Source: an uncultured Candidatus Saccharibacteria bacterium (lineage in GTDB: Bacteria; Patescibacteriota; Minisyncoccia; Phycocordibacterales; Phycocordibacteraceae). Taken from it: DNA of 64,000 nt. A model generated the notes under the pieces. It saw only the letters and a list, made by a program, of their open reading frames with translations, was not told where the DNA came from and ran no database searches. The translations under genes and the position numbers were made by a program. Positions 8,153 through 61,039 of this stretch are shown here, piece by piece (position 1 is the first letter of the stretch; each line of letters starts with the position of its first letter). The stretch lies in NCBI GenBank assembly GCA_964402535.1, contig CAYOCH010000002.1:6661-70660 (forward strand), given 5' to 3'.

Positions 8153-8201
8153 GTATAAAAGCGGCCGGGGAGGGCGTATGTGTCATACGACCTCCCCGGC
8201 C
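8153..8201 (-). terminator. intrinsic terminator (minus strand) between mltG and the PAP2 gene
   Basis: 11-bp stem ggccggggagg/cctccccggcc followed on the minus strand by TTTTAT, then a TATACT-like box and the PAP2 ATG. Confidence 0.5.
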
Positions 8202-16263: not shown

Positions 16264-16299
16264 TAAAACACAAAGAGCCCTGCACAGGGCTCTTTGTGT
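16264..16299 (-). terminator. intrinsic terminator (minus strand)
   Basis: 14-bp stem acacaaagagccctg/cagggctctttgtgt followed on the minus strand by TTTTAGAA; lies just after a 50-aa minus-strand small ORF (16303..16455). Confidence 0.45.
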
Positions 16300-21121: not shown

Positions 21122-22147
21122 ATGTCATTCTTCTCTCCGAAGCTCGGCATCGACCTAGGGACCACGAACGTGCTGGTCTTCGTGCCCGGCAAGGGGGTCG
21201 TGATCAACGAGCCGTCGGTCGTGGCCGTGGGCAAGGCGCACGGCAAGCTCGGCGCCAACAAGATCCTCGCTATCGGCGCCGAAGCCAAGAAGATGATCGG
21301 CCGAACGCCGGACGACATCATCGCCTACCGGCCGATGAAGGACGGCGTGATCGCCGACTATCGCGTCACCGAGGCGATGCTGCGCTACTTTATCCGTAAG
21401 GCGTTGGGGCGCAACCCGTTCAAACCGACGGTGCTCGTCTCGGTGCCGGCGGGCGTCACCTCCACCGAGAAGCGCGCGGTGATCGAAGCGGCCATGAAGG
21501 CGGGTGCCAAGAACGCGTACGTGGTCAAAGAGCCGATCCTCGCCGCGATCGGCGCGGGCATCCCGATCCACGAGCCGATGGGGCGGATGGTCGCCGACAT
21601 CGGCGGCGGCACGATCGACGTGGCCGTGATATCGCTCGGCGGCATCGTCGCCTCGACGAGCGTGAAGTGCGCAGGCGACAGGCTCGACCGCGCCGTCGTC
21701 GACCACGTGAAGAAGCAGTACAACCTCGCGATCGGCGACAAGACCGCCGAGGAGGTCAAGATCCGCGTCGGCGCGGCCGTACCGATGAACGAGGAACTGA
21801 CATTGCCGATCCGCGGCCGCGACATGGTCTCGGGGCTCCCGCGCACGGTGGACCTCTCGACGAACGACCTGGTTCAGGCGATGTCGCGTGAGCTCCGCGA
21901 GATGACGCAGGCGATCCGCAAGGTCTTGCAAGAGACGCCGCCAGAGCTCGCGGCTGACATCATCGACAACGGCATCATCCTGACCGGCGGCTCCTCGCAG
22001 CTGCGGCAGATGCCGGAGCTCGTCTACCGCCGCACCGGCGTCGTCGCCAAGCTCGCGACCGACCCCTACTACTGCGTCGCGCGCGGCACCGGCATCGCCC
22101 TCAAGCATCTGGACACGTACCAGAAGAGCATCATCGCCAAGCAATGA
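21122..22147 (+). CDS. mreB: rod-shape protein MreB (actin-like), copy 1
   Basis: MSFFSPKLGIDLGTTNVLVFV…VADIGGGTIDVAVISLGG…IILTGGSSQLRQM…; the track ORF 20735.. is an N-extension overlapping murA on the opposite strand. Confidence 0.85.
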   Translation: MSFFSPKLGIDLGTTNVLVFVPGKGVVINEPSVVAVGKAHGKLGANKILAIGAEAKKMIGRTPDDIIAYRPMKDGVIADYRVTEAMLRYFIRKALGRNPFKPTVLVSVPAGVTSTEKRAVIEAAMKAGAKNAYVVKEPILAAIGAGIPIHEPMGRMVADIGGGTIDVAVISLGGIVASTSVKCAGDRLDRAVVDHVKKQYNLAIGDKTAEEVKIRVGAAVPMNEELTLPIRGRDMVSGLPRTVDLSTNDLVQAMSRELREMTQAIRKVLQETPPELAADIIDNGIILTGGSSQLRQMPELVYRRTGVVAKLATDPYYCVARGTGIALKHLDTYQKSIIAKQ

Positions 22148-22857
22148 ACCGACAGCACGCGTACGTGATCGAGGCGGGGGCAGAGGAGGGGATTGAAATC
22201 GCCCAGAAATACGCGAGTGAGGAATTGGGTATTAGGAATAAGGGCAACGCGGACTGGATCGAGCTGCGCTACGGGCTGCTCTCGGTCGAGGATTCTCGGC
22301 GTGTGCAGGAGCTCGCGGTGCAAGCGCCGATCAAGAGTGACAAGAAGGCACTCGCGATCGCCGCGAACCGCGCGTATCACGAGGCGCAGAACGCGCTCTT
22401 GAAGCTCTTTGAGGAGCCGCCAGAGGGGACGTACCTCTTTTTGATCGTCCCCACGGCCGGGATGCTCTTGCCCACACTCCGGTCGCGCGTCCAAATCTTG
22501 GAAAATCCGAAAAAGAAGAACACTATCATATATGATAGTGACGGTATCGCAGCTGAATTTATAAAAGGAAGTAAAGAGAAAAGGACAGCGCTCATCAAGA
22601 AGCTGACGAGCGGGCGGGATGAAGAAGAACGGCGAGAGAATCGCGAGGCGGCGCTCGCGATCGTGAACGGGATCGAGGCGGTCGCATATCGGGACGTAGT
22701 ACGTCCTACAGCTGATGTAGGACGTAGTACGTCCTACATATGGGCGCTATTGAAGGAGTTACAGGTGTTGCGCGGCTATCTGCACGATCGCAGCGCGCCG
22801 GTCAAGATGATCCTCGAGCATCTCTCGCTCGTCCTGCCGCGCAATTTGTTATCATGA
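22144..22857 (+). CDS. holB: DNA polymerase III delta'-like clamp-loader subunit (short)
   Basis: …ALLKLFEEPPEGTYLFLIV…LLPTLRSRVQ (box VII / sensor-2-like); contains an in-frame palindromic insertion at 22692-22738. Confidence 0.55.
   Translation: MNRQHAYVIEAGAEEGIEIAQKYASEELGIRNKGNADWIELRYGLLSVEDSRRVQELAVQAPIKSDKKALAIAANRAYHEAQNALLKLFEEPPEGTYLFLIVPTAGMLLPTLRSRVQILENPKKKNTIIYDSDGIAAEFIKGSKEKRTALIKKLTSGRDEEERRENREAALAIVNGIEAVAYRDVVRPTADVGRSTSYIWALLKELQVLRGYLHDRSAPVKMILEHLSLVLPRNLLS
22692..22738. repeat. 47-nt nested palindromic tandem repeat inside the holB-like CDS
   Basis: Two copies of GGACGTAGTACGTCCTACA (each itself an inverted repeat) separated by GCTGATGTA, which pairs the TACA/TGTA ends; encodes …VVRPTADVGRSTSY…. 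Confidence 0.5.
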
Positions 22858-32269: not shown

Positions 32270-32310
32270 CAAGCACCGGCGCGGCGAGAGCCGCGCCGGT
32301 GCTTGTTTTT
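32270..32310 (+). terminator. intrinsic terminator after lysS
   Basis: 12-bp GC stem gcaccggcgcgg/ccgcgccggtgc followed by TTGTTTTT. Confidence 0.7.
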
Positions 32311-40105: not shown

Positions 40106-40877
40106 ATTACGAAAGTCAGACTCTCGTAAATCGTGTACTATGTGATGAATGCGCGTTGAGCCGTACGGCATCGATTCTATTGTCCACGCGATGAAGCGTG
40201 GTGCGCGTGGCTTGCCCATTACTCGTGATCTAGCGGATCAATGGAGATTCGTCCGGTTACTCTATTTTGCGAATGATGAGTACAAGGACGACTCATGGGA
40301 GCGAGAGACGGACGGGCTAGGTATGTTTGGTAGGCCGGACACATGGCCCGAACGCGTTCCGCTCGTCAAGATTCTCGGCTGGGTGCTCATGCCGAATCAT
40401 TTTCATCTGTTGCTTCGGGAAAGTCGCGAGCGTGGTATCTCGAAGTTCATGCAGAAACTGTGCGGCAGCATGACTGCGCATTTCAATTTGAAATATGAAG
40501 AGAGGGGAAGCCTGTTCCAAGGCGCGTATAAAGGGCGCACAATAGATAGTGATGTATACCTGCGGCATATAGGACCGTACATCATGGTGAAGAACGTGTT
40601 CGAACTCTACCCGGGCGGGTATGAGCGAGCCGTCAGCGAATTCGATACGGCATGGGAATGGGCGGTCGAGACGTACCGGTTCTCGAGTTTGGCGGATTAC
40701 GCTGCTGGTCGTAACTCGCCGATTATCGATAAGGATGTACTAGGAGGGCTGTTCCCGTCCCCAAGCGATTTCCGTGAGTACGCGAAGCAGGCCGTCCTTA
40801 GCCGGACTACCGAGTCCTTAGACGAGTTTCGCAGATTGGTTCTAGAATAGTTTACGAAAGTCAGACTCTCGTAAATT
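40106..40877 (+). mobile_element. IS200/IS605-like (RAYT-like) element: Y1 transposase flanked by 26-nt imperfect-palindrome direct repeats
   Basis: aTTACGAAAGTCAGACTCTCGTAAAT at 40106-40131 and tTTACGAAAGTCAGACTCTCGTAAAT at 40851-40877, each right after a TAG stop, bracketing the transposase ORF. Confidence 0.6.
40149..40850 (+). CDS. IS200-like Y1 (HuH) transposase / REP-associated tyrosine transposase
   Basis: HuH motif MPNHFHLLL, downstream Tyr-containing region (…YLRHIGPYIMVKN…); homologous to 60319..61038. Confidence 0.7.
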   Translation: MRVEPYGIDSIVHAMKRGARGLPITRDLADQWRFVRLLYFANDEYKDDSWERETDGLGMFGRPDTWPERVPLVKILGWVLMPNHFHLLLRESRERGISKFMQKLCGSMTAHFNLKYEERGSLFQGAYKGRTIDSDVYLRHIGPYIMVKNVFELYPGGYERAVSEFDTAWEWAVETYRFSSLADYAAGRNSPIIDKDVLGGLFPSPSDFREYAKQAVLSRTTESLDEFRRLVLE

Positions 40878-43262: not shown

Positions 43263-46200
43263 ATGAAATCGAAGCGCGAAACGAAGGGCCTCATCTCCAC
43301 CCGCTACGCCGGAAAAATTTCGGGCTATACGTCTGCCTACTTGCGCCGCCTCGCACGCTCCGGTGAGATCGAGGGTGTGCAGGTCGGCCGCGTGTGGATG
43401 ATCCGCCAGGCCTCTCTGATTCGCTTTCTCGACGAGCAGGCCAAGCGCAAGGAGGAGCTCTCCAAGGAGCGCGCCCGCGTCCACGCCGAGGAGTACCTCT
43501 CACACCAGGCGCCGGTGAAGCGCGTAGTCGCCAAGATCGCGAAGCCGATCCCGGTCAAGAACGTCGACGTCGAGGGGCTCGTCTCGAGCTCGCGCTCGCT
43601 CGTGGTCACGGTCGTCGTGGCGCTCGTCGCTGGCACGATCGCAGCACAAGGTCTCACGCCGACGCTCACAAGGATCGCTGCGCAGCCGGCGGCGGCACTC
43701 AACGCCGGCGAGCAGATCGCCGTTGCGACCTACGAGACGATCCACGGCCTCTTCACCTCGACGACGAGTGCGCTTGCCGACCTCTTCGCTCCGGCGCCGA
43801 CGATCGTGGTACCGGCTCCGCAGATCCGCGTGAACAAGCCGCCGCTCGCAGTCGCGTCATCATCACCGACGCAGACCAAACCGAAGCAGGTCGCTATCGC
43901 TCCGATTCTCCCGGCTCCGTACAAGGAGCCGGCACCCGTTTCGTACCCGACCTACGTCACGACCATCAACGGCGTCTCGCAGAGCTATGTCGATGCCGCG
44001 GTCTCCGCGATGCGGAGCGGAATCCTCGCCACCGTCTCGGGGATGCTCGCGCCGGTCGCGCAGCAGACCGTCGTCAATCAGACGACCATCCAGCAGGTCA
44101 ACATGATCCAGCGGCTCGGCGGCCTGATCGTCGACAACGGCCAGTTCAACGGCGGCACGTTCGACAAGGGGACGATGACGAACGGCATCGCCGTGAATGC
44201 CGAGAATGCGACGTTCACGAATCTCTCGGCGGGCAACGTGAACCTGGGCGCATCGAACCTCGCGACGACGACCGTCTCGGGCGATCTCACGCTCTCGGGC
44301 GTCTTGTCGGCGAACACGAAGGCTGTCGCGCCCTACTTCGTCGCCACCGCCTCGAACGCCACCAGCACCTTTGCCGGCGGCCTTGCGGTCGGCACGCAGC
44401 GTCTCGTGGTCGACTCGACCACCGGCCGCGTCGGCATCGGCACGACCTCGCCAGCACAGACACTCGAGGTCTCGAGCGCCGGCGACTGGAGCGGCATCAA
44501 CATCACGACGACCGCCGCGGGCAACCACCAGGCGATCTCCTTCAATCACCCGGAGGGCTATCCCTTCCAGATCTTCACGAGCTACACCGGCGGGCGACCT
44601 GACACGCAGTTCTACGTCGGGAGCAGCGGGACGGTCTTCATGTCGAGCAACAAGTTGGCAGTGAACGGCGGGGCGATCCCGTCGGCATCTGAGGCAGCAC
44701 TCTCGGTCGTGCCGGTAGGCACTGAGCCTGGCTTGAACGTCAAGAATAACGTTAACGGCTCATCGTCGCTCTTGGTGACGAATCTCGGCAAGGTGGGTCT
44801 CGCTTCTACGACTCCCTGGGCGCAGCTCTCGGTGAACCCGAACGGCATCACGGGCCCCGCATTCGCGATCGGCAGCTCGACCGCCACCAACTTCGTCGTG
44901 ACGAACGGCGGGCAGGTGGGTATCGGGACGACAAGTCCGGCATACACGTTTGATGTTACCGGTAGTGCGCGGATGGATAACCTCGCAGTGTCACAGAGCG
45001 GCGGCTTCCGCGCTGTCACGGGCAGCTGGGCCGGATCGCCGAGCGGCGACAACCTGAGCTGGCTCGCATTCGGTTGGGCTGACAATACGAAATACCATCG
45101 TATCCGCACGTGCGGGTTCTCGAACGATAACTTGTGCTTCGATTTGATCAATCCGTCGACGCACTACCTCTCGATCACCGGGCAGCTGAACTCGGTCTAC
45201 GGTGCGACGATCGGCTATGCCGCGGGTACTGCCGGACCGACAAACGGCCTTGCCGTGAGCGGCTCGACAGGCATCGGCACCACCTCTCCGTGGGCGCAGC
45301 TCTCGGTTAACCCGAACGGGATCACTGGCCCCGCATTCGCAATCGGCTCCTCGACCGCCACGAACTTCGTCGTGACGAATGGGGGGAATGTCGGGATCGG
45401 GACTACTTCGCCGCAAAGCACGTTTGTCGTCAATGGCACGTCCCAGTTTACGAATAATGCTGTGTTCAATGCGCAGATCAGCGTCAGTCAGATTACCTCG
45501 CCGAATAACTTGTTGATTGCTGCAGGCGGACCACTGGTGCAGATTGCGGGTCACCTAGTGCCGCAAGTTACCGGTACATATGATTTGGGTTCTGCGAGTG
45601 CCGGATGGAGAAACGTGTATGTAACCGGGAACGTCGGCATCGGCACCACCTCGCCAAGCGCGACACTCGCAGTGCAGGGCAACGGCCTTTTCTCGGGCAA
45701 TCTCACCGCCTCGGGCAATACCTATATAGGTGCGACATCGGCGAACACCCTCACGGTGAACGCGCTCGTTAACTCTGACATCACGCCGAGCACGAACGCG
45801 GTCAACTCGCTCGGCTCGCCGAGCTTCTATTGGAAGAATGTCTACGCCGCGAACGTGATCGCCAACAACATCAGCGCCGCCTCGACCACGATCGCGGGCA
45901 CGGCCTCGGCCACCTTCACGATCAACTCGGGCAACGCGACGGCCGACACGCTCGACTCCTCACTCGTCTTCTTCCGCGGGACCGTCGTCCCGAACGCCGT
46001 TCTCGGTTGGGACTCGACCAACAAGCGCTTCACGATGAATCAGCCGCTCTTTATCCAGAACGCGTCGAATAACGGCGGCGGCGTGATCTCGCTCGCGGTA
46101 CAAGGGCTCGCTGGCCAGACCGCCGACGTCCTCCGCATCGCCTCCTCGACCGGCACGAGCTACTTGAACGTGACTGCGGGCGGGAATGTGGGGATCGGGA

Positions 46201-49200
46201 CGGCGAATCCGGGAAGCCTCTTCACCGTCTCTGGAGGGTCATCTGGTGAGCAGCAGGTGGCTTTGTTCACGAGTACCGGTTCAGCTAATACGAAGATCGC
46301 GATCGAAAATGCTGCGGTCGGCGGTCACAGGTGGGAATTGAGGTCAACATCGACCGGCACCTTCGATATCGTCGACAGAACCGCGCCTGCTCAGCGCTTC
46401 GTCATAGACACCGCCGGTAACGTCGGCATCGGCACGACCTCGCCGTGGGCGCAGCTCTCGGTGAACCCGAACGGGGTTACGGGCCCCGCGTTCGCAATCG
46501 GCAGCTCGACCGCCACGAACTTCGTCGTGACGAACGGCGGGCAGGTGGGTATCGGGACGACGAATCCGCAGCAGGCGCTGCATATCAGTACGACGAATAC
46601 GTATCAGGGCATCTTCTTGAACGGCAACGCAGCGCCCTCGATCGGGTTCGCCGGCTGGAGCGGGCTGACGCCCGCGTGGAAGGTGGGCATCAGCGGGTCG
46701 GCAGGGAGCAACTTGGCTATCAGCACCGGAGCGGCGAACGCCGACCTCTTCAACTTCACGACCGCGGGCAATCTCGGCATCGGGACGACCTCGCCGTGGG
46801 CGCAGCTCTCGGTGAACCCGAACGGGGTTACGGGCCCCGCCTTCGCGATCGGCTCCTCGACCGCGACGAACTTCGTCGTGACGAACGGCGGGCAGGTGGG
46901 GATCGGCACAAGCAATCCGACGCTCGGGACGGGCTCGACGACCCTCGAAGTCTACGGCAACGGCGGCGGCTTCACCCAGTACGGCTCGCTGTCTCTCGCC
47001 AACACTACGAACTCCGGCAGCTCCTATTCAGGCTCGGTCGACTACTACGGCGCTACCACGTTGTACGGCCAGATTCGCACGCACGTGATCACCGGCGGCC
47101 CGAGCGGTATGTCCCAGATCGAATTGTCGGCGCTGAATGGCGGCGCGCTGAATCAGGTGTTCACGGTCGGTGGCACCGGCAGCGTGACGGTCGGCACCGC
47201 AAACGGTGTGTCGAGCGGGTATCTTGGCGTCTACAACTCGGCCGGATACGGGCAGACGAATACCGGCATCATCTTGGGCAACATGCAGACGGGCGCCGGC
47301 TCGAATATCGGGGTCAACTTCGTCGACTACGCGCAGAACAACATCGCGCAGATCCTCGGCGTGTATCCGGGCGGCACCAAGGCCGGCAGCCTCGCGTTCT
47401 CGACCGGGAACGGCACGAGCCTGAACGAAGCGATGCGCATCACGAGCGCCGGCAATATCGGCATCGGTACCTCGACTCCCGCAGAGAAACTGGACGTCGC
47501 CGGGCGGCTCTCGATCGAGGATATCTCGGGCAATCCGCCGTCGGCGGCTCGGTCGTCATTTGTCTTCGAGAGCAATACGGACCCTCTCAATACGTCCGTC
47601 TCGGCGCTCTACGTGTATCCGAGGACCGACACCTCTAAGCGCTTCTATTTCGGCACGACGACGCACCAGTTCTATGCCGTCGACTTCTCGAACGTCTTGA
47701 GCATCACGGGTGTGACCAGTATCCAAGGCGCTCCCAACACGCAGGCGATCGATTTTTCATCGGCTGCGTATGACACGACCTACGGCACGGCGACGTTCGA
47801 CTTCAAGCCCACGGTCGATAACACCCGGCCGGTCGTGCTGCGCAACTCGCGCGTCACCGACAGCGCGACCTCGGTCGGCTTCGTGCTGAAGACGGTCAAT
47901 ACGCTCTCGAACGCATCGGCGAAGCTCCTGACGCTCGACAACAACACGACGAACCTTCTGACCGTCATGGCGAACGGCAATGTCGGCATCGGGACCACTT
48001 CTCCATTCGCTGACCTTTCGATTGGCGGGGCGAGCAACGGGACTAACCCGCTCTTCGCGGTCTCGACCTCGACTGCGAGCGCGACCTCGACCGCCTTCAT
48101 CATCGACAAGAACGGGAATGTCGGCATCGGGACGGCGAACCCGGGCCAGGCGCTCACGGTGAATGGCGAGATCAGCCTCTTGGGCGCATCTGGCTCGTCG
48201 CGCGGGCTCTTGGGCGCGCCGACATGGGACAACTCATACGTCTCGCTCCAGAACGGGTCGTTGAGTGAGAGCGCCGCGAACTCGGCGATCAACCAAAACA
48301 GCCTCGGTGACACGATCGTGAACGCCGCGACCGGCAGGGCGCTCCACCTGCGCGTCGGCAACACCGAGCAGATGAGCTTTAACGGCACCATCGCCGCATT
48401 CCAGAACGTGAACGTCGGCATCGGGACCACGAGCCCGGCAGACAATCTCGACGTATACGCGCCGAACAACGCGGGATTGGCGAAGATTGGACTGATAAGG
48501 GGCGATGGAGCGGGGTATCTGACGCAATGGACCTATGGCCCGGCGGGGAACGGATTCCTCGAGATCGGCGAGAACGAGGCGTTCAACAGCTCCGGCTCGG
48601 CGCGGGTACAGTTCAATACCGGAGCGCCGTCGTGGTTCCAGCAGTTCAACACCAACGTCGACAGCTATCAGATCGCACGCATCCCGGCGGGCGGCAGCAC
48701 GGCAAACGTGATGCTCTATATACAGAGTAACGGCAACGTCGGCATCGGCACCACCTCTCCCTCGCAGGCGCTCTCTGTGCAGGGCAATGGCCTCTTCTCG
48801 GGCAACATCACGGCAGCGAACATCACGGCGACTGGGACGGTGACTGCCGCGAATTTCTCCGGCCCAGGTGTAGATCCGCAAGGATATGGCAACTACTTGT
48901 CGATAAATCCTGCGACTCAGGATCTCAAATTCTCACGCGGCGGCTACTGGCTCAATTTCAATTTGACCAACAACACGCCTGTCATCACATCACAGAACAA
49001 TCTATTAGCCCTGCCTGGTATCACAGCGACATCCTCTGTATTTACGGGATACTCCGCGCAGCAAGATGTGAGTCGCTCAACGATCCTCTCGCTCACGCGG
49101 CAGAATACCGGCGCCCGCTTTCAACAAGCAGCAAACTTCATAATGGGCGGCTACGATTCGGCACAAACTGCGCATACGCAATTGGATATCGCCCTCACGA

Positions 49201-52200
49201 ACACCGCGACAAACGGCGTCCCAGACGCGACCGTGATGAGCCTCTTGGGCAACGGCAACGTCGGCATCGGTTCGACCACGCCTGCCGCGACGCTCGCGGT
49301 GCAGGGCAACGGCCTCTTCTCGGGCAACATCACAGCCGCGAACATCACTGCGACTGGGACGCTCTCGACAACCGGCGCGATCTCGGCACCGTACTTCGTC
49401 GCGACGAACGCGCTCGCAACGAGCACGTTTGCAGGCGGCATCACGGGGCCGGGCAGCTTTGCGGTGCAGCAGACGACTGGCTATGTCGGCATCGGGACGA
49501 CGTCGCCGACGAGTGCACTCTATGTCGCGGGCAATGGCCTCACATCAAGCGTTATCACGGCTGACGGAGGCGCGAACTCTATATTCGGCCTCACCGTGCG
49601 GGGCTATCAGAACTGGGGCTCGGGTGTCGCCTACACCAACCAGACTGCAAACCGTACCTACGTCACGTATCAGGACACGACAGGTAATTTCAATATCTAC
49701 GACAGCACGGTGGGGAATCGGGTCACGGTGACTTCTACCGGCAGCGTCGGCATCGGCACCACGACTCCGTTCTATAAGCTTGAGGTGAACGGCACGGTCG
49801 AGGTCGCGAACGGGAGCGGTCTTTATGCGCTCTCGTCGAGCGGCACGCACTACCGGCTCGTGGACCTCGACGCGAGCAACGTCGTGAACATGGGCCCCAA
49901 CGGCTCGATCCAGATCGCGAACGGCGCGCCCTCGAGCGCGATCTTCGTGCAGAACACTGGCTCGGTCGGGATAGGCACGAATAGCCCTCAAGTGGCGCTG
50001 CATGTAGGGCCGACGGCAGCCGGCGCGAATGAGGTCGCAAGATTCGAACATGCGAACGCTGCGGGTTCATCCGGCATCACGATCTATCAGAATGGGACAC
50101 TAAAGGGCTCTCTCGGTACTGGCGACTTCGTGGCGACTGGGGGAGCCAACACAGACTTCGGCATCCAGTCTGCTGGCAACATGCTGTTCGCTACTGGCGG
50201 TACTGTCCAAAAAATGGTGCTGACATCAGGCGGCAATGTCGGCATCGGGTCGACCTCGCCCACGAGCCTCTTGAGCGTCTATGGCGCGGCGGGGGCGGCC
50301 ACCGTCACGATCGGCTCGCCCTCGAACTCTGCGCTCTTGACGCTCGATCGCGGCTCGAACACGCAGAACGCGACCTTTAACCTCAACACCGCGGGCGTGA
50401 ATTACGGCTACTTCGGCCTCGACACGAGCGCCAACTCGGTGACGCTCGCCTCGTCGAACAACAACCAGCTCACGGTCTCAGCGCACAACGCAAACCTCCT
50501 CCTGCGCGGCGGCACGAGCAACGGCATCATCATGCAGACCAACGGCAGCGCCGAGGCGATGCGCGTCACAAGCGGCGGCAACGTCGGCATCGGGTCGTCG
50601 ACGCCAAGCGCTGTCCTCGCGGTGTCGAACACGGCCGCGACCGCCGCCAACACGCCGCTCTTCACGATCGCTTCGACGACGGGCGGCACCTCCACGTCAA
50701 GCTTGATGACCGTTCTCGCGAACGGCAACGTCGGGATAGGTACGAGCAATCCGACCTCGCCGCTGTATGTATCGGGTGCGCCTGCGTTGCAGGCGGTCAT
50801 CGGCACGACGGCGAACACGCAGAACTGGATCTCTATCATCAAGTCGAGCAGTCAGACTGCGAGCTTCGGCATCCGCGCCAATAACTACGGCTTCCTCCAG
50901 GCGAACACCGGGATGCAGATCGAGAACTCGTCGTCGCAACCCTATATCGTGTTTGACGGGGTGAACGAAGGGATCGGCACCACGTCGCCATCTGCGACGC
51001 TCGCAGTGCAGGGCAATGGCCTCTTCTCGGGCAACATCACGGCTGCGAACATCACCGCGACGGGGACGCTCTCGACCACAGGAGCGATCTCGGCGCCCTA
51101 CTTCGTCGCGACGTCGCCGACCGCGACCTCAACCTTCGCGGGCGGCGCGACGTTCGCGACGAGCGGCGGCAACGTCGGTATCGGGACAGCGAATCCAGGC
51201 TACGCACTCGACGTCGCCGGTCTTGCGGGCATCAATGGGCGAGTGAAGCTTGGCGCCGGCAACGATCAGGTGGACATTGCGAACGGTGGCCTCGTGCTAC
51301 ATGACAGCGGCACAACTGCATATGTCGAGGCGCAGAATTCTAACAAGCCGCTCGTTCTCGGTACCAGTAACGCGGATATTCAATTCACTACAGGATTCGG
51401 CGTCACAGAGCTGATGAGGATCAAAGCGAACGGGAATGTGGGGATCGGCACGTCGACGCCCGCGGCTACGCTCGCGGTCGCGATGGCGAGCACAACACCG
51501 GCCTTCTATATCGGCGCGGCAGGGAGCTCGTCGCCCGCCTTCTATGTCGGCAGCGCGAACGGGAGCGGGCTCGTGGGTATCGGCACCTCGGCACCCGACC
51601 ATCCGCTCCAGATCACCGGCAACCCGCTACTCACGAGCGCGGTCGTGCGTGTGGGCGCCGTCGCGCAGAACGTCTCTGCATTGCGCGTGAAGGGCTACTT
51701 CAACGGCTTGAACGGCAATGAGGATGCCGGCGGCGTGAACGTCTACAACTACAACTCGGCCACGGTGCAGGCGACGCTCGGCGGCGACAGCGGCCTCTTC
51801 GCCTCGCCGCGCGGCACCAACCTCGTCGCGGCGATCGTCCGCGGCCTCACCGGCCAGACAGCCAATCTGCAAGAGTGGCAGGATGTGAACGGCAATCCGC
51901 TCTCTGTGATTACGAGCAGCGGCAACCTCGGCGTGGGCACCTCCTCGCCCGCGCAGGCGCTCTCGGTCGCGGGGACGGGCTACTTTGCGACGAATGTCGG
52001 CATCGGCGTGGCGAACCCGGGCGTATATAGCCTTATGGTGCAGGCGCCGACGATCGGCGGCCAAGTCTTCGGCGTCACTACGAATTATGGCAACAGCGGC
52101 AAGTTCGAAGTCAGCTTCAACAGCGGCAACGACCCGTTCGCTCACTTGACTACTAAGCAGGGTGGACAGATCGCCTACTACGACATGTACGACTCGGTCG

Positions 52201-54920
52201 GCAAGGCGATGCAGCTTGGTCAGACATTCGGCAACGGGATCAACCTCTCGGCCTCGACGAGCATCCAGATCGGCATCGACTCGAACAATCTCGGCACCGG
52301 CATGTTCGAGATCGCAAGAGGGAACACCTGGAACGGTCGCGCGGGCGTCGACGGCACCTCGCTCTTCAAGATCCTCAACAACGGCAACGTCGGCATCAGC
52401 AACACGAATCCCTCAACCCTCCTCGACGTGAACGGCACGACCACGCTGCGCAACCAGGTGTCGGTGAATGGGGCGAGCTTCTACGACAACACCGGCAAGA
52501 TCGGGCTCGGGGTCAAGATGACGAGCGACCTCAAGACTGCGCTCTATGTCACTGACAACTTTGCGGCGATGAGCGCGATCAATGGCGCATACATCTCATC
52601 GGTCATATACGGCGCCAATACGCAGCAAGGGAAGAACGCGTACTATGGAGCCATCAATGACCCGACGCTCTCGGTGAATATCCAAAACGGTTCCGGGTTC
52701 GTGAGCTATCTCAATAACACCAACAACACCGGCACCAACATCAATCACGGCGGTCTCTTCTATCAGAATCAGACTATGAATGTGGCCAACACCGGAACCG
52801 ATTATGGCTACACCTCGTACAACTACATGCAGAGCAGCGGCAACCCGACCTCGCTTGCGAATTATGTCGGCTTCTACTCTCGCGGGCAATTCGCGGTCGC
52901 GCCGGCGACGACGACCAACCAGTACGACTTCTATGCCGACAACTTCGTGGGGACAGGTAACGGCGCGGTCGTGAACCGCTACGGCGTCTATATCGGCTTC
53001 AACAGCACCGGCATCACGAACCCCTACGGCATCTATCAAGCGAGCCCGACTGTCCAGAACTACTTCGGCGGCAACGTGGGGATCGGCACCACGACGCCCC
53101 TCGCGAAGCTCGCAGTTCTCGGCACGGCAGAGCAGCTCCGTCTCAACTACGACGCGACGAACTACGCGAGCTTCACGGTGAGCAGCGCCGGCACGCTCAC
53201 TATTGCCCCCACGTCGAACGTAATGAATATCTCGGCGACGACACTGAATACGAATACGATCAACGTCGCCACCGGCAACGTCATCAATTTCAACGGGGTA
53301 GGCTACCTCCGCAGCCTGGGCGGCGTGTTTAACATCAATGACACCAACACGAACAACATCCTTCTCGCCAATGGTGGCGGCAACGTCGGCATCGGCACGT
53401 CGACACCTCAAAACAAGCTGACGATCGTCGGCGGGATCGGCACGTTCGTTAACACCAACTCCTCCTACCGAACCGACTGGGATGCCGGCTATATGATCAA
53501 CGACAAGCTTGCGATATCGAAGTACGGCGCAATTGGCCAGCTCTCGATCGACGCACAGGGTCAGTTCGGTTCGGTAATGGTCGGAAATATCGGCAACTAT
53601 GTGAGCAATTTGCTTGTGAGCGGCAACGTGGGGATCGGGACCACGACGCCTGGGAAGAAGTTGGTTATAGATAGCGGCTCGAATGGCAATAGCTTTGCGG
53701 CAAGCTTCAGCAATGGTGGAGCGGGCAGACCATATTGGCTGTATAATTTCCAGCAGCAGAATGTGCAGTGGACTTCTGGATTCGACATTGGAGGGAATAC
53801 AAACGACTTCTCCATCAGCAATACGTACTCTGGAACCCGAGATGTTTTCCACATCGAAAACACGGCGCCTGCGAATAGTTTTAGAATCCAAGCAAATACT
53901 GGCAATATCGGTATCGGTACGACGAGCCCTTCGACCCTCTTACACCTCTACTCGGCGAGTGCGCCATCGATAACGATTGAGTCGTCTGCTGCTGGCGGCG
54001 GCGCGACCGATAGGCGTCTCACCATCAATCAGAACAATGGAGGTACGGCGACACTCACCGCGATGGAGGATGAGAACAGCTCAACTCAGGCGGCGTTCAT
54101 CATCAACGCGACTAACAATCCGAGCAACGCCGCGCTCGCGATTCGGCCCATATTCGATCTGCAGAACGGCGGCAACAGCAAGCTCTTCGTCACAGCCGCA
54201 GGCAATGTCGGCATCGGCAGTACGTCGCCGAATACGAAACTTGTTGTCTCTGACAACAGCGGCCAGACGCTCATCGGCAGCATGGCCGCTTCGTACGGAT
54301 CCATCGGTTTCCAGCCGACCCTCACCACGTCCAATTTCGCGCTCGCCGGCAACACATCTGAAACGATACTTAATACGCTCGCGGGCACGTCGCTCAAGTT
54401 CCGCGTAGCGAACGCAGACAAGATGGTTATGGACCAAAACGGCAATGTCGGCATCGGCACCACGACACCTAGCAATAAGCTGACCGTCGCAGGCGGAGCA
54501 GACTTCGGTACGGCATACAGCCCGACTGGACAGACGATACGTCTAGCGCCGAGCGGAACGTTTTCAGAAGCGGATGTCATTTCTCAAGCGGTAGGATTGT
54601 CGATCTTCGCTAATCCGCAGGCCACAGCGCAGCCGTCATGGATCGACCCGCTTATGAGTCTCCCGAACGGGGCAGGACTGATGTCGACGACGGGAGTCGA
54701 TCTGATTTTGTCCGCGTCATCTCATGCTGGCGGCGGCGTCACGATCGCCGGATATCATAACGGCGCTGCACATGACATCAAGTTCTTCAACGACGGCAAC
54801 GAACAGATGCGCCTCACGACCGCTGGTAATCTCGGCATCGGGACCTCGACGCCGGGCGCGACGATGAACGTCTACTCGGGCGCCGGGACGCCGTGGAATA
54901 CCTACCCATCAGGCACCTGA
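43263..54920 (+). CDS. giant membrane-anchored repeat protein (3885 aa): N-terminal excisionase-type HTH + TM anchor + tail-fibre-like 'GNVGIGTTSP' repeat region
   Basis: N-terminal …LISTRYAGKISGYTSAYLRRLARSGEIEGVQVGRVWMIRQASLIRFL (HTH_17-like). TM helix SLVVTVVVALVAGTIAAQGL. Then ~3700 aa of Gly/Thr/Ser/Asn-rich modules with recurrent GNVGIGTTSP(W/S)A…L(S/A)V and APYFVAT…ATSTFAGG motifs. Ends at TGA, in frame with the next ORF. Confidence 0.8.
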   Translation: MKSKRETKGLISTRYAGKISGYTSAYLRRLARSGEIEGVQVGRVWMIRQASLIRFLDEQAKRKEELSKERARVHAEEYLSHQAPVKRVVAKIAKPIPVKNVDVEGLVSSSRSLVVTVVVALVAGTIAAQGLTPTLTRIAAQPAAALNAGEQIAVATYETIHGLFTSTTSALADLFAPAPTIVVPAPQIRVNKPPLAVASSSPTQTKPKQVAIAPILPAPYKEPAPVSYPTYVTTINGVSQSYVDAAVSAMRSGILATVSGMLAPVAQQTVVNQTTIQQVNMIQRLGGLIVDNGQFNGGTFDKGTMTNGIAVNAENATFTNLSAGNVNLGASNLATTTVSGDLTLSGVLSANTKAVAPYFVATASNATSTFAGGLAVGTQRLVVDSTTGRVGIGTTSPAQTLEVSSAGDWSGINITTTAAGNHQAISFNHPEGYPFQIFTSYTGGRPDTQFYVGSSGTVFMSSNKLAVNGGAIPSASEAALSVVPVGTEPGLNVKNNVNGSSSLLVTNLGKVGLASTTPWAQLSVNPNGITGPAFAIGSSTATNFVVTNGGQVGIGTTSPAYTFDVTGSARMDNLAVSQSGGFRAVTGSWAGSPSGDNLSWLAFGWADNTKYHRIRTCGFSNDNLCFDLINPSTHYLSITGQLNSVYGATIGYAAGTAGPTNGLAVSGSTGIGTTSPWAQLSVNPNGITGPAFAIGSSTATNFVVTNGGNVGIGTTSPQSTFVVNGTSQFTNNAVFNAQISVSQITSPNNLLIAAGGPLVQIAGHLVPQVTGTYDLGSASAGWRNVYVTGNVGIGTTSPSATLAVQGNGLFSGNLTASGNTYIGATSANTLTVNALVNSDITPSTNAVNSLGSPSFYWKNVYAANVIANNISAASTTIAGTASATFTINSGNATADTLDSSLVFFRGTVVPNAVLGWDSTNKRFTMNQPLFIQNASNNGGGVISLAVQGLAGQTADVLRIASSTGTSYLNVTAGGNVGIGTANPGSLFTVSGGSSGEQQVALFTSTGSANTKIAIENAAVGGHRWELRSTSTGTFDIVDRTAPAQRFVIDTAGNVGIGTTSPWAQLSVNPNGVTGPAFAIGSSTATNFVVTNGGQVGIGTTNPQQALHISTTNTYQGIFLNGNAAPSIGFAGWSGLTPAWKVGISGSAGSNLAISTGAANADLFNFTTAGNLGIGTTSPWAQLSVNPNGVTGPAFAIGSSTATNFVVTNGGQVGIGTSNPTLGTGSTTLEVYGNGGGFTQYGSLSLANTTNSGSSYSGSVDYYGATTLYGQIRTHVITGGPSGMSQIELSALNGGALNQVFTVGGTGSVTVGTANGVSSGYLGVYNSAGYGQTNTGIILGNMQTGAGSNIGVNFVDYAQNNIAQILGVYPGGTKAGSLAFSTGNGTSLNEAMRITSAGNIGIGTSTPAEKLDVAGRLSIEDISGNPPSAARSSFVFESNTDPLNTSVSALYVYPRTDTSKRFYFGTTTHQFYAVDFSNVLSITGVTSIQGAPNTQAIDFSSAAYDTTYGTATFDFKPTVDNTRPVVLRNSRVTDSATSVGFVLKTVNTLSNASAKLLTLDNNTTNLLTVMANGNVGIGTTSPFADLSIGGASNGTNPLFAVSTSTASATSTAFIIDKNGNVGIGTANPGQALTVNGEISLLGASGSSRGLLGAPTWDNSYVSLQNGSLSESAANSAINQNSLGDTIVNAATGRALHLRVGNTEQMSFNGTIAAFQNVNVGIGTTSPADNLDVYAPNNAGLAKIGLIRGDGAGYLTQWTYGPAGNGFLEIGENEAFNSSGSARVQFNTGAPSWFQQFNTNVDSYQIARIPAGGSTANVMLYIQSNGNVGIGTTSPSQALSVQGNGLFSGNITAANITATGTVTAANFSGPGVDPQGYGNYLSINPATQDLKFSRGGYWLNFNLTNNTPVITSQNNLLALPGITATSSVFTGYSAQQDVSRSTILSLTRQNTGARFQQAANFIMGGYDSAQTAHTQLDIALTNTATNGVPDATVMSLLGNGNVGIGSTTPAATLAVQGNGLFSGNITAANITATGTLSTTGAISAPYFVATNALATSTFAGGITGPGSFAVQQTTGYVGIGTTSPTSALYVAGNGLTSSVITADGGANSIFGLTVRGYQNWGSGVAYTNQTANRTYVTYQDTTGNFNIYDSTVGNRVTVTSTGSVGIGTTTPFYKLEVNGTVEVANGSGLYALSSSGTHYRLVDLDASNVVNMGPNGSIQIANGAPSSAIFVQNTGSVGIGTNSPQVALHVGPTAAGANEVARFEHANAAGSSGITIYQNGTLKGSLGTGDFVATGGANTDFGIQSAGNMLFATGGTVQKMVLTSGGNVGIGSTSPTSLLSVYGAAGAATVTIGSPSNSALLTLDRGSNTQNATFNLNTAGVNYGYFGLDTSANSVTLASSNNNQLTVSAHNANLLLRGGTSNGIIMQTNGSAEAMRVTSGGNVGIGSSTPSAVLAVSNTAATAANTPLFTIASTTGGTSTSSLMTVLANGNVGIGTSNPTSPLYVSGAPALQAVIGTTANTQNWISIIKSSSQTASFGIRANNYGFLQANTGMQIENSSSQPYIVFDGVNEGIGTTSPSATLAVQGNGLFSGNITAANITATGTLSTTGAISAPYFVATSPTATSTFAGGATFATSGGNVGIGTANPGYALDVAGLAGINGRVKLGAGNDQVDIANGGLVLHDSGTTAYVEAQNSNKPLVLGTSNADIQFTTGFGVTELMRIKANGNVGIGTSTPAATLAVAMASTTPAFYIGAAGSSSPAFYVGSANGSGLVGIGTSAPDHPLQITGNPLLTSAVVRVGAVAQNVSALRVKGYFNGLNGNEDAGGVNVYNYNSATVQATLGGDSGLFASPRGTNLVAAIVRGLTGQTANLQEWQDVNGNPLSVITSSGNLGVGTSSPAQALSVAGTGYFATNVGIGVANPGVYSLMVQAPTIGGQVFGVTTNYGNSGKFEVSFNSGNDPFAHLTTKQGGQIAYYDMYDSVGKAMQLGQTFGNGINLSASTSIQIGIDSNNLGTGMFEIARGNTWNGRAGVDGTSLFKILNNGNVGISNTNPSTLLDVNGTTTLRNQVSVNGASFYDNTGKIGLGVKMTSDLKTALYVTDNFAAMSAINGAYISSVIYGANTQQGKNAYYGAINDPTLSVNIQNGSGFVSYLNNTNNTGTNINHGGLFYQNQTMNVANTGTDYGYTSYNYMQSSGNPTSLANYVGFYSRGQFAVAPATTTNQYDFYADNFVGTGNGAVVNRYGVYIGFNSTGITNPYGIYQASPTVQNYFGGNVGIGTTTPLAKLAVLGTAEQLRLNYDATNYASFTVSSAGTLTIAPTSNVMNISATTLNTNTINVATGNVINFNGVGYLRSLGGVFNINDTNTNNILLANGGGNVGIGTSTPQNKLTIVGGIGTFVNTNSSYRTDWDAGYMINDKLAISKYGAIGQLSIDAQGQFGSVMVGNIGNYVSNLLVSGNVGIGTTTPGKKLVIDSGSNGNSFAASFSNGGAGRPYWLYNFQQQNVQWTSGFDIGGNTNDFSISNTYSGTRDVFHIENTAPANSFRIQANTGNIGIGTTSPSTLLHLYSASAPSITIESSAAGGGATDRRLTINQNNGGTATLTAMEDENSSTQAAFIINATNNPSNAALAIRPIFDLQNGGNSKLFVTAAGNVGIGSTSPNTKLVVSDNSGQTLIGSMAASYGSIGFQPTLTTSNFALAGNTSETILNTLAGTSLKFRVANADKMVMDQNGNVGIGTTTPSNKLTVAGGADFGTAYSPTGQTIRLAPSGTFSEADVISQAVGLSIFANPQATAQPSWIDPLMSLPNGAGLMSTTGVDLILSASSHAGGGVTIAGYHNGAAHDIKFFNDGNEQMRLTTAGNLGIGTSTPGATMNVYSGAGTPWNTYPSGT
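44817..46920 (+). repeat. intragenic near-identical ~125-nt DNA repeats (family A: WAQLSVNPNG(I/V)TGPAFAIGSSTATNFVVTNGG(Q/N)VGIGT)
   Basis: Copies at ~44817, 45291, 46446 and 46797 (>90% nt identity between the last two), plus a fifth in the second ORF at ~56484. Confidence 0.7.
45652..51150 (+). repeat. intragenic ~75-150-nt repeats (family B: ATLAVQGNGLFSGNITAANITATGTLSTTGAISAPYFVAT…ATSTFAGG)
   Basis: Copies at ~45652, 48760, 49283 and 50993; the 49283 and 50993 copies are >90% identical over ~150 nt. Confidence 0.7.
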
Positions 54921-54968
54921 GCTGCGATCGTCAACCAGTCGCAGAACATTAGCGGCGGCAACGGCCTC

Positions 54969-60281: not shown

Positions 60282-60295
60282 CGATACTCTGCTCT

Positions 60296-61039
60296 GAATG
60301 AAGGACATCGTATGTCCTTCATTCAAGCTTTTCGTAAGGCTTGAAGCTCGAATCTGAATCGCGGAGATATTCGTGAATGGACACGGAATAGCTTCCGAGA
60401 GCGTCTTTGAATAGCGTCGGTGATAAGAGGGAAGGGAAGTTGTGTTCACCAGTATAATCCGGATAGCTGCTCCAACGATACGTACGCAAATATTTCAAAG
60501 CATCATCCACATTTCGTATTCCAGCCTTCTCGCGTAGACGCCACTGTTCAGCCCCTGGTAGATAATCAAGCGGATTCAAGTGAATGTAGTGAAGGATGTA
60601 CAAGAAGTGCGAGTCGCGGTCGATCAGAATCTTCTTGGTGCGGCCCTGGAAGAGAGTGCCGCTGCGTGAATATCGCTCGTTGAAATATTTTGCGTAGCCG
60701 ACGTTGAGCTTTCGTAAGAAGAGGCTCATGGCACCGTCGACGCGTTCGCTCAACAGCAGGTGGTAGTGATTTTTCATCAGTACCCAGCCATGGATGTCGA
60801 CTAGCAGCTCCCGCGGTTCCCTAAATGAAGGACATACGAAGTCCCTCATGGCAGTCGGGTCAAATAGGCGCCACACGTTGTCTGCGGGTGCTGTATCGTT
60901 AAACTCATAGAGATCGTGCACGAAGCGAGCGTAATCCTGGGTATCAAGGAACAAATCTCTCCCCTCAACGCCGCGATTTAGGACGTGCCAAAGTTCCATA
61001 TACATCATGATACATGAAGGACATACGATGTCTTTCATG
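60296..61039 (-). mobile_element. second IS200/RAYT-like element: Y1 transposase flanked by ~27-nt hairpins
   Basis: Perfect hairpin GAATGAAGGACAT-CGT-ATGTCCTTCATTC at 60296-60324 and CATGAAGGACAT-ACG-ATGTCTTTCATG at 61013-61039; a degenerate third copy lies inside the gene at 60823-60849. Confidence 0.6.
60319..60999 (-). CDS. IS200-like Y1 (HuH) transposase / RAYT, copy 2
   Basis: HuH motif MKNHYHLLL, …FQGRTKKILIDRDSHFLYILHYIHLNPL…; divergent homolog of 40149..40850. The track start 61038 lies inside the flanking hairpin, so the internal ATG (MELWHVL…) is preferred. Confidence 0.65.
   Translation of the reverse strand: MELWHVLNRGVEGRDLFLDTQDYARFVHDLYEFNDTAPADNVWRLFDPTAMRDFVCPSFREPRELLVDIHGWVLMKNHYHLLLSERVDGAMSLFLRKLNVGYAKYFNERYSRSGTLFQGRTKKILIDRDSHFLYILHYIHLNPLDYLPGAEQWRLREKAGIRNVDDALKYLRTYRWSSYPDYTGEHNFPSLLSPTLFKDALGSYSVSIHEYLRDSDSSFKPYEKLE

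Follow-up and report, generated by a model that had tools for sequence, protein, structure and literature searches.

We analyzed a 47-nt palindromic feature at nt 22692–22738 of a 64,000-nt stretch (hereafter, the window) of contig CAYOCH010000002.1, from an uncultured bacterium labelled Candidatus Saccharibacteria. The feature lies in frame in a gene for a DNA polymerase III delta'-like protein, here called holB. Our data indicate, with a probability of about 0.8, that it is a compact doublet of GTAG-type repetitive extragenic palindromes (REPs), similar to the hairpin-forming REP doublets termed REPINs. Two inverted 19-nt units surround a 5-nt spacer, and the element would belong to a family dispersed in Patescibacteria and associated with a REP-associated tyrosine transposase (RAYT)-like gene of the HUH/Y1 type. 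The doublet occupies a variable loop of the protein, modeled with lower confidence. Copies of its core occur in unrelated housekeeping genes, in one preferred frame, and the same core is found on either side of and inside a RAYT-like gene. The RAYT-like gene of the window itself is bracketed by a diverged variant.

The feature reads GGACGTAGTACGTCCTACA (22692–22710), GCTGATGTA (22711–22719) and GGACGTAGTACGTCCTACA again (22720–22738). A preliminary description, made from the sequence of the window, had called it a nested palindromic tandem repeat able to form a cruciform or several hairpins. The two identical 19-mers and their in-frame position were exactly as described there, and a repeat search recovered the direct repeat (100% identity, spacing 28 nt). 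The same search also returned a 19-nt inverted repeat, with arms at 22692–22710 and 22716–22734 that are 95% complementary and separated by a 5-nt loop. Because of this arrangement, the dominant structure on either strand is a single long hairpin, not several small ones. Hence, the feature does fold, but it is better viewed as an inverted REP doublet than as a tandem repeat. The predicted DNA fold has an energy of –23.2 kcal/mol (z = –6.42) and the RNA fold an energy of –40.6 kcal/mol (z = –6.16); in neither case did any of 200 shuffled sequences do as well. Flanking CATAT (22685–22689) and ATATG (22738–22742) contribute five extra pairs, so that the hairpin grows to 22685–22742. The holB copy is thus an inverted doublet that folds as one long hairpin, which is the arrangement that defines a REPIN.

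Each single REP unit of 23 nt has a stem of 10 bp and a loop of 3 nt, and the arms of the doublet are 19 nt long. GTAG is present in the right unit (T-GTAG-GACGT, 22717–22720) and missing from the left unit, which has ATCG at its 5' foot. A GTAG foot characterizes one of two REP superfamilies. Both loops of the holB doublet read AGT, and this peculiarity of the holB copy gives the long hairpin its one central mismatch and its tandem appearance. No relevant match to known RNA families (Rfam) was found at the holB region, and inspection for an intrinsic terminator or promoter found no T-run after the doublet. The feature is neither a sequencing nor an assembly oddity.

The host gene encodes a 237-aa protein that matches Pfam PF13177 (DNA_pol3_delta2) with E = 3.7e-15 (56.7 bits; cut-off 27). 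E. coli HolB is longer. The match spans profile positions 72–156 only, and this partial coverage, together with the short length, makes "delta'-like" the safe name. More than 2,000 homologs were found, and their named sources are Patescibacteria (a group that also goes by the name Candidate Phyla Radiation, CPR), including Kaiserbacteria, Paceibacterota and Parcubacteria. In an alignment of 36 orthologs (A1), the protein is well conserved except at two hypervariable spots, R1 (after LRSRVQxL) and R2 (after NGIEAxAY). The element lies at R2, where it encodes about RDVVRPTADVGRSTSYI in the context AVAY-RDVVRPTADVGRSTSYI-W. The proposal that codons had been inserted here is borne out by the alignment: the spot is hypervariable, and the shortest orthologs (P0094 and P0097) have 11–12 residues fewer there than the window protein. 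R1 of eight other orthologs contains near-identical peptides (DVRRPTSDVGRRTSY, HVGRTTSYI), and R2 of five orthologs contains shorter forms (MSGRTTSRH, HVGRTTSYM). The presence of one peptide at two different spots indicates an inserted DNA element rather than ancestral protein sequence. The preliminary description took shared residues in orthologs, combined with a unique motif, to argue against an insertion. GRTTS is indeed shared by some orthologs at the same place, but it reflects the same element family there, not ancestral protein sequence, and the motif is not unique.

An AlphaFold model built on the ortholog alignment has a mean predicted local distance difference test score (pLDDT) of 85. 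R1 (aa 124–132) lies at a domain boundary and has pLDDT <50. For R2, the 10-residue block means across residues 181–200 are 70 and 66, and the region is modeled as a coil (187–195) between helices 160–186 and 196–215. Judging from this model, R1 and R2 are loops where extra residues should be tolerated. At the DNA level, each of three orthologous holB loci has strong hairpins at both R1 and R2. A "half" element in these loci reads TGTA-GGACGTnnnACGTCC-TACA (stem 10 bp, loop 3 nt), and a "full" element reads GGACGTnnnACGTCC-TACA-(5 nt)-TGTA-GGACGTn'n'n'ACGTCC. In one genome (L003), a compensated variant, GGGACGT...ACGTCCCGAC, is present at both R1 and R2.

Within the window, a search for the 15-mer core with up to one mismatch located the holB copy only, which suggested a unique feature. 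This was overturned by a relaxed pattern and by a genome scan. A search for the relaxed core GGACRTNNNAYGTCC (≤1 mismatch) gave five occurrences across the window versus 0.6 expected, and these are confined to the holB element and to one gene at 60.3–61.0 kb, which has three copies. The genome scan covered one genome per species (596 Gb) and used the pattern TGTAGGACGTNNNACGTCCTACA, with 20 specified bases, GTAG being required by the pattern. It identified the core TGTAGGACGTnnnACGTCCTACA at 77 sites in 59 stretches, nearly all of them from Patescibacteria assemblies (metagenome-assembled genomes). By our arithmetic, chance alone would yield ~1 match to 20 fixed bases in 596 Gb. Thus, while no other exact 15-mer exists in the window, the further copies that the preliminary description had thought worth seeking are dispersed in related genomes. 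Exact sites numbered at least 13 in JBAZRE01, 10 in JBBTWA01, and 8 each in JACRFL01 and CAYHGO01; the window has one element site plus three variants at its RAYT-like gene.

Most sites (61 of 77, or 79%) fall inside stop-free open reading frames (ORFs) of at least 200 aa. For random 23-mers from the same loci the value is 85%, so the elements are not excluded from genes. The extragenic location by which REPs are usually recognized does not hold for this family. Host ORFs gave strong Pfam matches in eight of eight cases, to TGT (tRNA-guanine transglycosylase), GluRS, DnaX, a class-V aminotransferase, an FAD oxidase, PheT (PheRS beta), AlaRS and UvrC. Besides these unrelated gene families, at least eight in number, the core is present in intergenic DNA. 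The reading VGRxTSY is seen at 56 of the 61 intragenic sites whichever strand codes, because the palindrome encodes the same peptide on both. One of the three reading frames of the core contains TAG.

Doublets are a minority, with only 11–13 among the 77 sites. Thirteen doublets from other genes and genomes match the architecture of the holB copy, ATRTYK-GGACGTnnnACGTCC-TACA-TCTGA-TGTA-GGACGTn'n'n'ACGTCC-TACA. The loop triplets are complementary in 12 of these 13, and the thirteenth (L027) is a hybrid. These comparisons bear on whether the holB doublet arose instead by replication slippage, as a local 28-nt tandem duplication of a single REP already in holB. Such an origin would fit the 100% identity of the two 19-mers and their common AGT loop, which set the holB copy apart from the doublets with complementary loops, and several orthologs have only a singlet (GRTTS) at R2. 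Yet the 5-nt spacer, its sequence (GCTGA versus TCTGA) and the left foot (ATATCG versus ATGTCG/ATATTG) fit the doublet architecture seen elsewhere, and a single C-to-G loop change explains AGT/AGT equally well. We regard slippage as unlikely; the unit remains a REP of the same family either way.

Across the family, each genome has a single loop triplet, which differs from genome to genome (GGT/ACC, ACG/CGT, AGT/ACT, TGC/GCA and CGG/CCG; L004–L062), and the triplet of a given genome is common to its RAYT-flanking and dispersed copies. Orthologous sites are occupied across genomes at holB R1 and in the genes for GluRS, AlaRS and TGT. Loops that are uniform per genome even though many sites are orthologous between genomes are a signature of concerted evolution. 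Conversion or turnover could produce this pattern, as could recurrent insertion at a few tolerated sites.

The link to a transposase-like gene comes from ten loci where two or three copies of the core are clustered, with spacings of ~195 and ~535 nt, bracketing and lying inside an ORF of ~225 aa. Upstream, internal and downstream copies are present at L005, L030, L041, L046, L056 and L058, and two of the three positions are occupied at L035, L053, L055 and L061. The possibility that the three-copy cluster is an RNA gene was rejected, as comparison of eight repeat loci (six with the cluster) with RNA families returned only a tRNA. The encoded protein has an invariant HUH motif, NH[YF]HLL, and a Y...N pair in LHYIHLNP; H78, H80, Y138 and N142 are present in 32 of 32 sequences. 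Going by motif spacing, the counterparts of these residues in E. coli TnpA-REP would be H59/H61, Y115 and N119 (residue names from PMC3479197). About 2,800 homologs share 65–77% identity, the named ones being from Patescibacteria, and some of the homologs have a precomputed PF01797 hit and the annotation "transposase".

The AlphaFold model of the RAYT-like protein is confident for residues 1–135 only, with the exception of residues 40–58, which are the translated internal REP (pLDDT <50). A Foldseek comparison of the model with the PDB ranked 4er8_A first (E = 1.5e-5), a structure of the E. coli RAYT in complex with a REP hairpin, and the TnpA proteins of ISDra2 and IS608 next. A profile sequence search against the PDB reached no more than E = 0.2, to ISDra2 TnpA. 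Motifs and model suggest that the ~225-aa ORF encodes a distant RAYT-like nuclease of the HUH/Y1 type. Here, a RAYT-like gene is flanked by the REPs of its own genome, as in the units termed REPtrons. With a RAYT-like gene, flanking REPs and a dispersed family that includes long-hairpin doublets, the arrangement matches the REPtron and REPIN of the literature. Moreover, the dispersed core, the bracketed RAYT-like gene and the variable-loop location uphold the earlier suggestion of an element tolerated in frame and akin to a REP or a miniature inverted-repeat transposable element.

These observations also bear on a gene-specific role, in which selection would preserve the hairpin as a functional structure of holB mRNA or DNA (for instance one that pauses translation between domains, is cut by an RNase, or signals regulation or replication) and its resemblance to a repeat would be secondary. 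Strong hairpins at R1 and R2 of the window gene and of 3/3 orthologs, with differing sequences of which some are unrelated to the REP core, are in line with such a role, as are the position of R1 at a domain boundary and the RNA fold of –40.6 kcal/mol. But an identical 23-nt core that brackets a RAYT-like gene and recurs both between genes and in at least eight unrelated gene families is hard to reconcile with it. In addition, the same peptide occupies R1 or R2 depending on the ortholog, the shortest orthologs leave no room for a doublet at R2, and neither an Rfam match nor a terminator-like T-run was found. We therefore consider a gene-specific function quite improbable. Patescibacteria have been reported to be naturally competent, and frequent placement in coding regions, a strong frame preference and genome-specific variants would also suit uptake or recognition sequences (DNA uptake sequences, restriction/modification motifs) accumulating by biased recombination, but that explanation is very improbable, as the elements lengthen proteins rather than recode existing residues, form hairpins with doublets, flank a Y1/HUH nuclease gene on both sides in the manner of REPtrons, and number tens per genome, not hundreds or thousands.

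The window encodes its own RAYT-like protein (Table 1). The core at this gene reads GAAGGACAT-nnn-ATGTCCTTC and differs from that of holB, GTAGGACGT-nnn-ACGTCCTAC, by two compensated changes in each arm and by the absence of GTAG.

Table 1. Coordinates of the holB element, the RAYT-like genes and associated palindromes in the window
Feature	Position	Strand	Evidence
Host gene, 237-aa DNA polymerase III delta'-like protein; REP doublet in variable spot R2 (~aa 181–197)	22144..22857	+	Pfam, alignment, AlphaFold
Second palindrome, 20 bp, perfect, CACTATCATA/TATGATAGTG, unrelated to REP, in R1; encodes NTIIYDS	22521..22540	+	Repeat search; pLDDT <50 at aa 124–132
Whole hairpin: REP doublet plus 5-bp flanking pairs CATAT/ATATG	22685..22742	+	DNA/RNA fold, sequence
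Left REP unit, GGACGT-AGT-ACGTCC-TACA, 5' foot ATCG; read as DVVRPT	22692..22710	+	Architecture as in 13 doublets elsewhere
Spacer/loop GCTGA, 5 nt (other doublets: TCTGA, TCAGA or TTTGA)	22711..22715	+	Repeat search, doublet comparison
Right REP unit, T-GTAG-GACGT-AGT-ACGTC-CTAC-A, exact dispersed 23-nt core; read as VGRSTSY	22716..22738	+	Sequence, genome scan
Imperfect palindrome TTACGAAAGTCAGACTCTCGTAA, 23 nt, upstream of RAYT-like paralog	40107..40129	+	0 expected by chance
Second RAYT-like paralog, 31–34% identical to first type; HUH motif NHFHLLL	40149..40850	+	tblastn, alignment
Identical copy of TTACGAAAGTCAGACTCTCGTAA, directly downstream of paralog	40852..40874	+	0 expected by chance
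REP variant at 3' end of RAYT-like gene, over stop codon; perfect 14-bp stem TGAATGAAGGACAT-CGT-ATGTCCTTCATTCA	60295..60325	.	Pattern search
RAYT-like HUH/Y1 gene; listed ORF 60319–61038, start MELWHV at 60999 as in homologs	60322..60999	-	tblastn, 58–62% identity to L046/L005 genes
Degenerate REP variant inside RAYT-like ORF; encodes MRDFVCPSF at position of NVGRxTSYI in homologs	60827..60847	.	pLDDT <50 at aa 40–58
REP variant upstream of RAYT-like gene, GAAGGACAT-ACG-ATGTCtTTC on + strand	61016..61036	.	Pattern search

If the RAYT-like enzyme acts as E. coli TnpA-REP does (PMC3479197), it would bind the folded, single-stranded hairpin via its 5' GTAG foot and would then cut and rejoin the DNA, so that REPs are spread or maintained. 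In E. coli, the GTAG foot is needed for both binding and cleavage by the RAYT (PMC3479197). Copies would persist only if the additional 8–17 residues lie in surface loops that tolerate them and the frame is free of stops. The holB copy is probably an old insertion, as its stem (GTAGGACGT) and loop (AGT) differ from those of the RAYT-side REPs of its own genome (GAAGGACAT, loop CGT/ACG) and one loop base breaks the perfect hairpin.

Several points weigh against a RAYT-associated REP as the identity of the holB feature. The L046 and L005 orthologs of the RAYT-like protein score below curated thresholds, with 18.9 and 16.9 bits for Pfam Y1_Tnp (PF01797; gathering threshold 23) and 18.6 and 28.6 bits for NCBIfam NF047646 (REP-associated tyrosine transposase; cut-off 80), and nuclease activity is predicted only, from motifs and a structural model. 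The RAYT-side variants in the window have GAAG instead of GTAG; given this and the stem differences, the holB element cannot be assumed to be a substrate of the enzyme that the window encodes. There is only one element site in 64 kb, so the genome, judged from this window, does not seem REP-rich. A metagenome scan for the RAYT-side variant GAAGGACATNNNATGTCCTTC gave 25 heterogeneous hits, only one of them beside a RAYT homolog, and thus no evidence that this variant forms a dispersed family. The AGT/AGT loops fit a 28-nt tandem duplication of one REP as well as they fit a point change in a REPIN. The closest ortholog of the delta'-like protein is only 64–67% identical, too distant to date the insertion. 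Finally, the insert is most likely translated as a neutral loop, a reading taken from the open frame only.

We compared this system with the REPs, REPINs and RAYTs of E. coli and Pseudomonas (PMC3479197, PMC3116915, PMC2817692, PMC3733652). Shared features are a short GC-rich hairpin with a GTAG 5' foot, the occurrence of both singlets and inverted long-hairpin doublets, and a dispersed family with genome-specific variants. The REPtron is also alike, with an HUH/Y1 gene (HUH, Tyr, and Asn at +4) bracketed by the same hairpins; a single gene of this conserved type was seen per locus or window. Differences are nonetheless evident. GTAG is base-paired with CTAC within the stem here, unlike in classical REPs, and ~79% of the copies are intragenic, in one reading frame, whereas classical REPs are mostly extragenic. 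The spacers of Pseudomonas REPINs are tens of nt long, compared with 5 nt in the doublets described here, which total 43–47 nt. Relative to the E. coli RAYT, the protein (~225 aa) is longer, has an extra C-terminal region, and has one REP inside its own ORF. Orthologs fall under the curated Pfam and NCBIfam thresholds, and copy number is in the tens per genome, which also departs from the classical system.

REPs inside genes have been described before. Di Nocera et al. (2013) reported such copies, noted that many reside in genes for replication and repair, and drew a link to Rickettsia palindromic elements (PMC3733652). The intragenic REPs of Opitutus terrae, Thauera, Xanthomonas and other bacteria resemble those analyzed here in having GTAG, in being single or dimeric, in being inserted in frame (up to 20–30 residues), and in their replication, repair and tRNA-synthetase hosts, represented here by holB-like, DnaX, UvrC, GluRS, AlaRS and PheT genes. 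In those species, however, the family is large and extragenic and only a minority of its copies lie within genes, whereas here an intragenic location is the rule. Patescibacteria lay outside that survey (PMC3733652). Rickettsia palindromic elements (RPEs) are likewise in-frame palindromic repeats in essential genes, translated and located in tolerated surface loops. Elements of the RPE-1 type are ~100–150 nt long, and RPEs are not known to have an associated transposase; the element described here is 23–47 nt and has an associated RAYT-like gene. The IS200/IS605 family shares the HUH/Y1 fold, as the ISDra2 and IS608 matches indicate, and also uses imperfect hairpins and a 5' guide tetranucleotide as recognition elements. 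In contrast to IS200/IS605, the gene here was not seen as a multi-copy mobile unit and is conserved at 65–77% identity across many genomes, there is no tnpB, and hairpins are dispersed without the gene.

A more far-reaching idea is that a conserved and apparently vertically inherited RAYT-like nuclease keeps genome-specific compact REPs alive inside essential genes of Patescibacteria, with protein loops serving as the REP habitat. The loop triplet, uniform per genome and differing between genomes even at orthologous sites, and the REP within the nuclease ORF would be consistent with such maintenance, and the near absence of intergenic space in these genomes with such a habitat. We advance this tentatively and think it rather doubtful. 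If true, it would point to conversion or turnover that is still under way and perhaps to a function in the cell (as single-strand DNA landmarks, in mRNA structure or in autoregulation), not to dead insertions.

REPs, REPINs and RAYTs have mostly been studied in Proteobacteria and in intergenic DNA. Here, a system of this type is found in ultra-small, gene-dense Patescibacteria, with most copies in housekeeping genes. The kind of element appears to be known already, yet its occurrence in this lineage and in such a genomic setting is apparently undescribed. No paper combining RAYT or REPIN with Patescibacteria or CPR turned up in a literature search, although literature coverage was incomplete and this is weak evidence for novelty. 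The element offers an explanation for unusual peptide inserts that recur in CPR proteins (xVGRxTSYx, DVRRPTSDVGRRTSY) and for their hypervariable loops, with consequences for annotation, alignment and structure prediction. It also offers a natural test of how selfish hairpins persist with almost no non-coding DNA, and a compact, defined hairpin/enzyme pair with which to test how RAYTs function and how the loop triplet changes in concert.

Some REP contigs bear the labels "Candidatus Saccharibacteria", "Chloroflexota" or "Omnitrophota", and we did not accept these labels as showing a wide host range. At least three such contigs (L030, L041 and L056) encode RAYT-like proteins 60–75% identical to the Paceibacterota one. 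REP contigs of Paceibacteria type that are filed elsewhere include L030 (DASVZE01, "Chloroflexota"), L006 (JADGBR01, "Omnitrophota") and the CAY*/CAZ* contigs ("Candidatus Saccharibacteria"). The off-taxon labels likely reflect mis-binning or generic labelling, not true cross-phylum spread.

Sequence next to the core showed a further regularity. At 45% of sites (1.6% expected), at least three additional palindromic bases of variable sequence lie beside the core, extending it by 3–13 bp. Part of this extension is a longer consensus (CCCA...TGGG), and the rest resembles inverted duplication of the flank.

Peptides other than VGRxTSY also recur. GFTKP, SRSSKQEI and KRGDGV are found at R1 or R2 of holB orthologs, and the internal REP site of RAYT-like homologs (e.g. 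P0216) reads VGFTKPNI or MRDFVNPSF. This recurrence suggests further lineage-specific REP variants, such as a putative GTTGGGTTTnnnAAACCCAAC, obtained by back-translation of VGFTKPN. The second palindrome in the window gene, at R1, lies in a stretch of 37% GC and is followed on the minus strand by a T-rich run, making it terminator-like; no further copy was found within the window. Orthologs with NTTIYGSN at R1 would have a compensated palindrome if this peptide, from which the DNA sequence was deduced, is encoded by ACTACCATATATGGTAGT.

The window has a second RAYT-like gene, flanked by two copies of TTACGAAAGTCAGACTCTCGTAA in direct orientation, with no others in the window. The region 40107–40874 probably represents another REPtron-like unit, one that has a hairpin of its own. 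Just upstream of the first RAYT-like gene are two very large adjacent ORFs (43263–60281, + strand) of 3,885 aa and 1,770 aa, rich in G/T/S/A repeats, which probably encode giant surface proteins. Other strong hairpins, with arms of 15–18 nt, loops of 2–4 nt and sequences unrelated to REP, are located at 8163–8201, 16268–16299 and 32270–32305. At least the last of these is intergenic and resembles a terminator.

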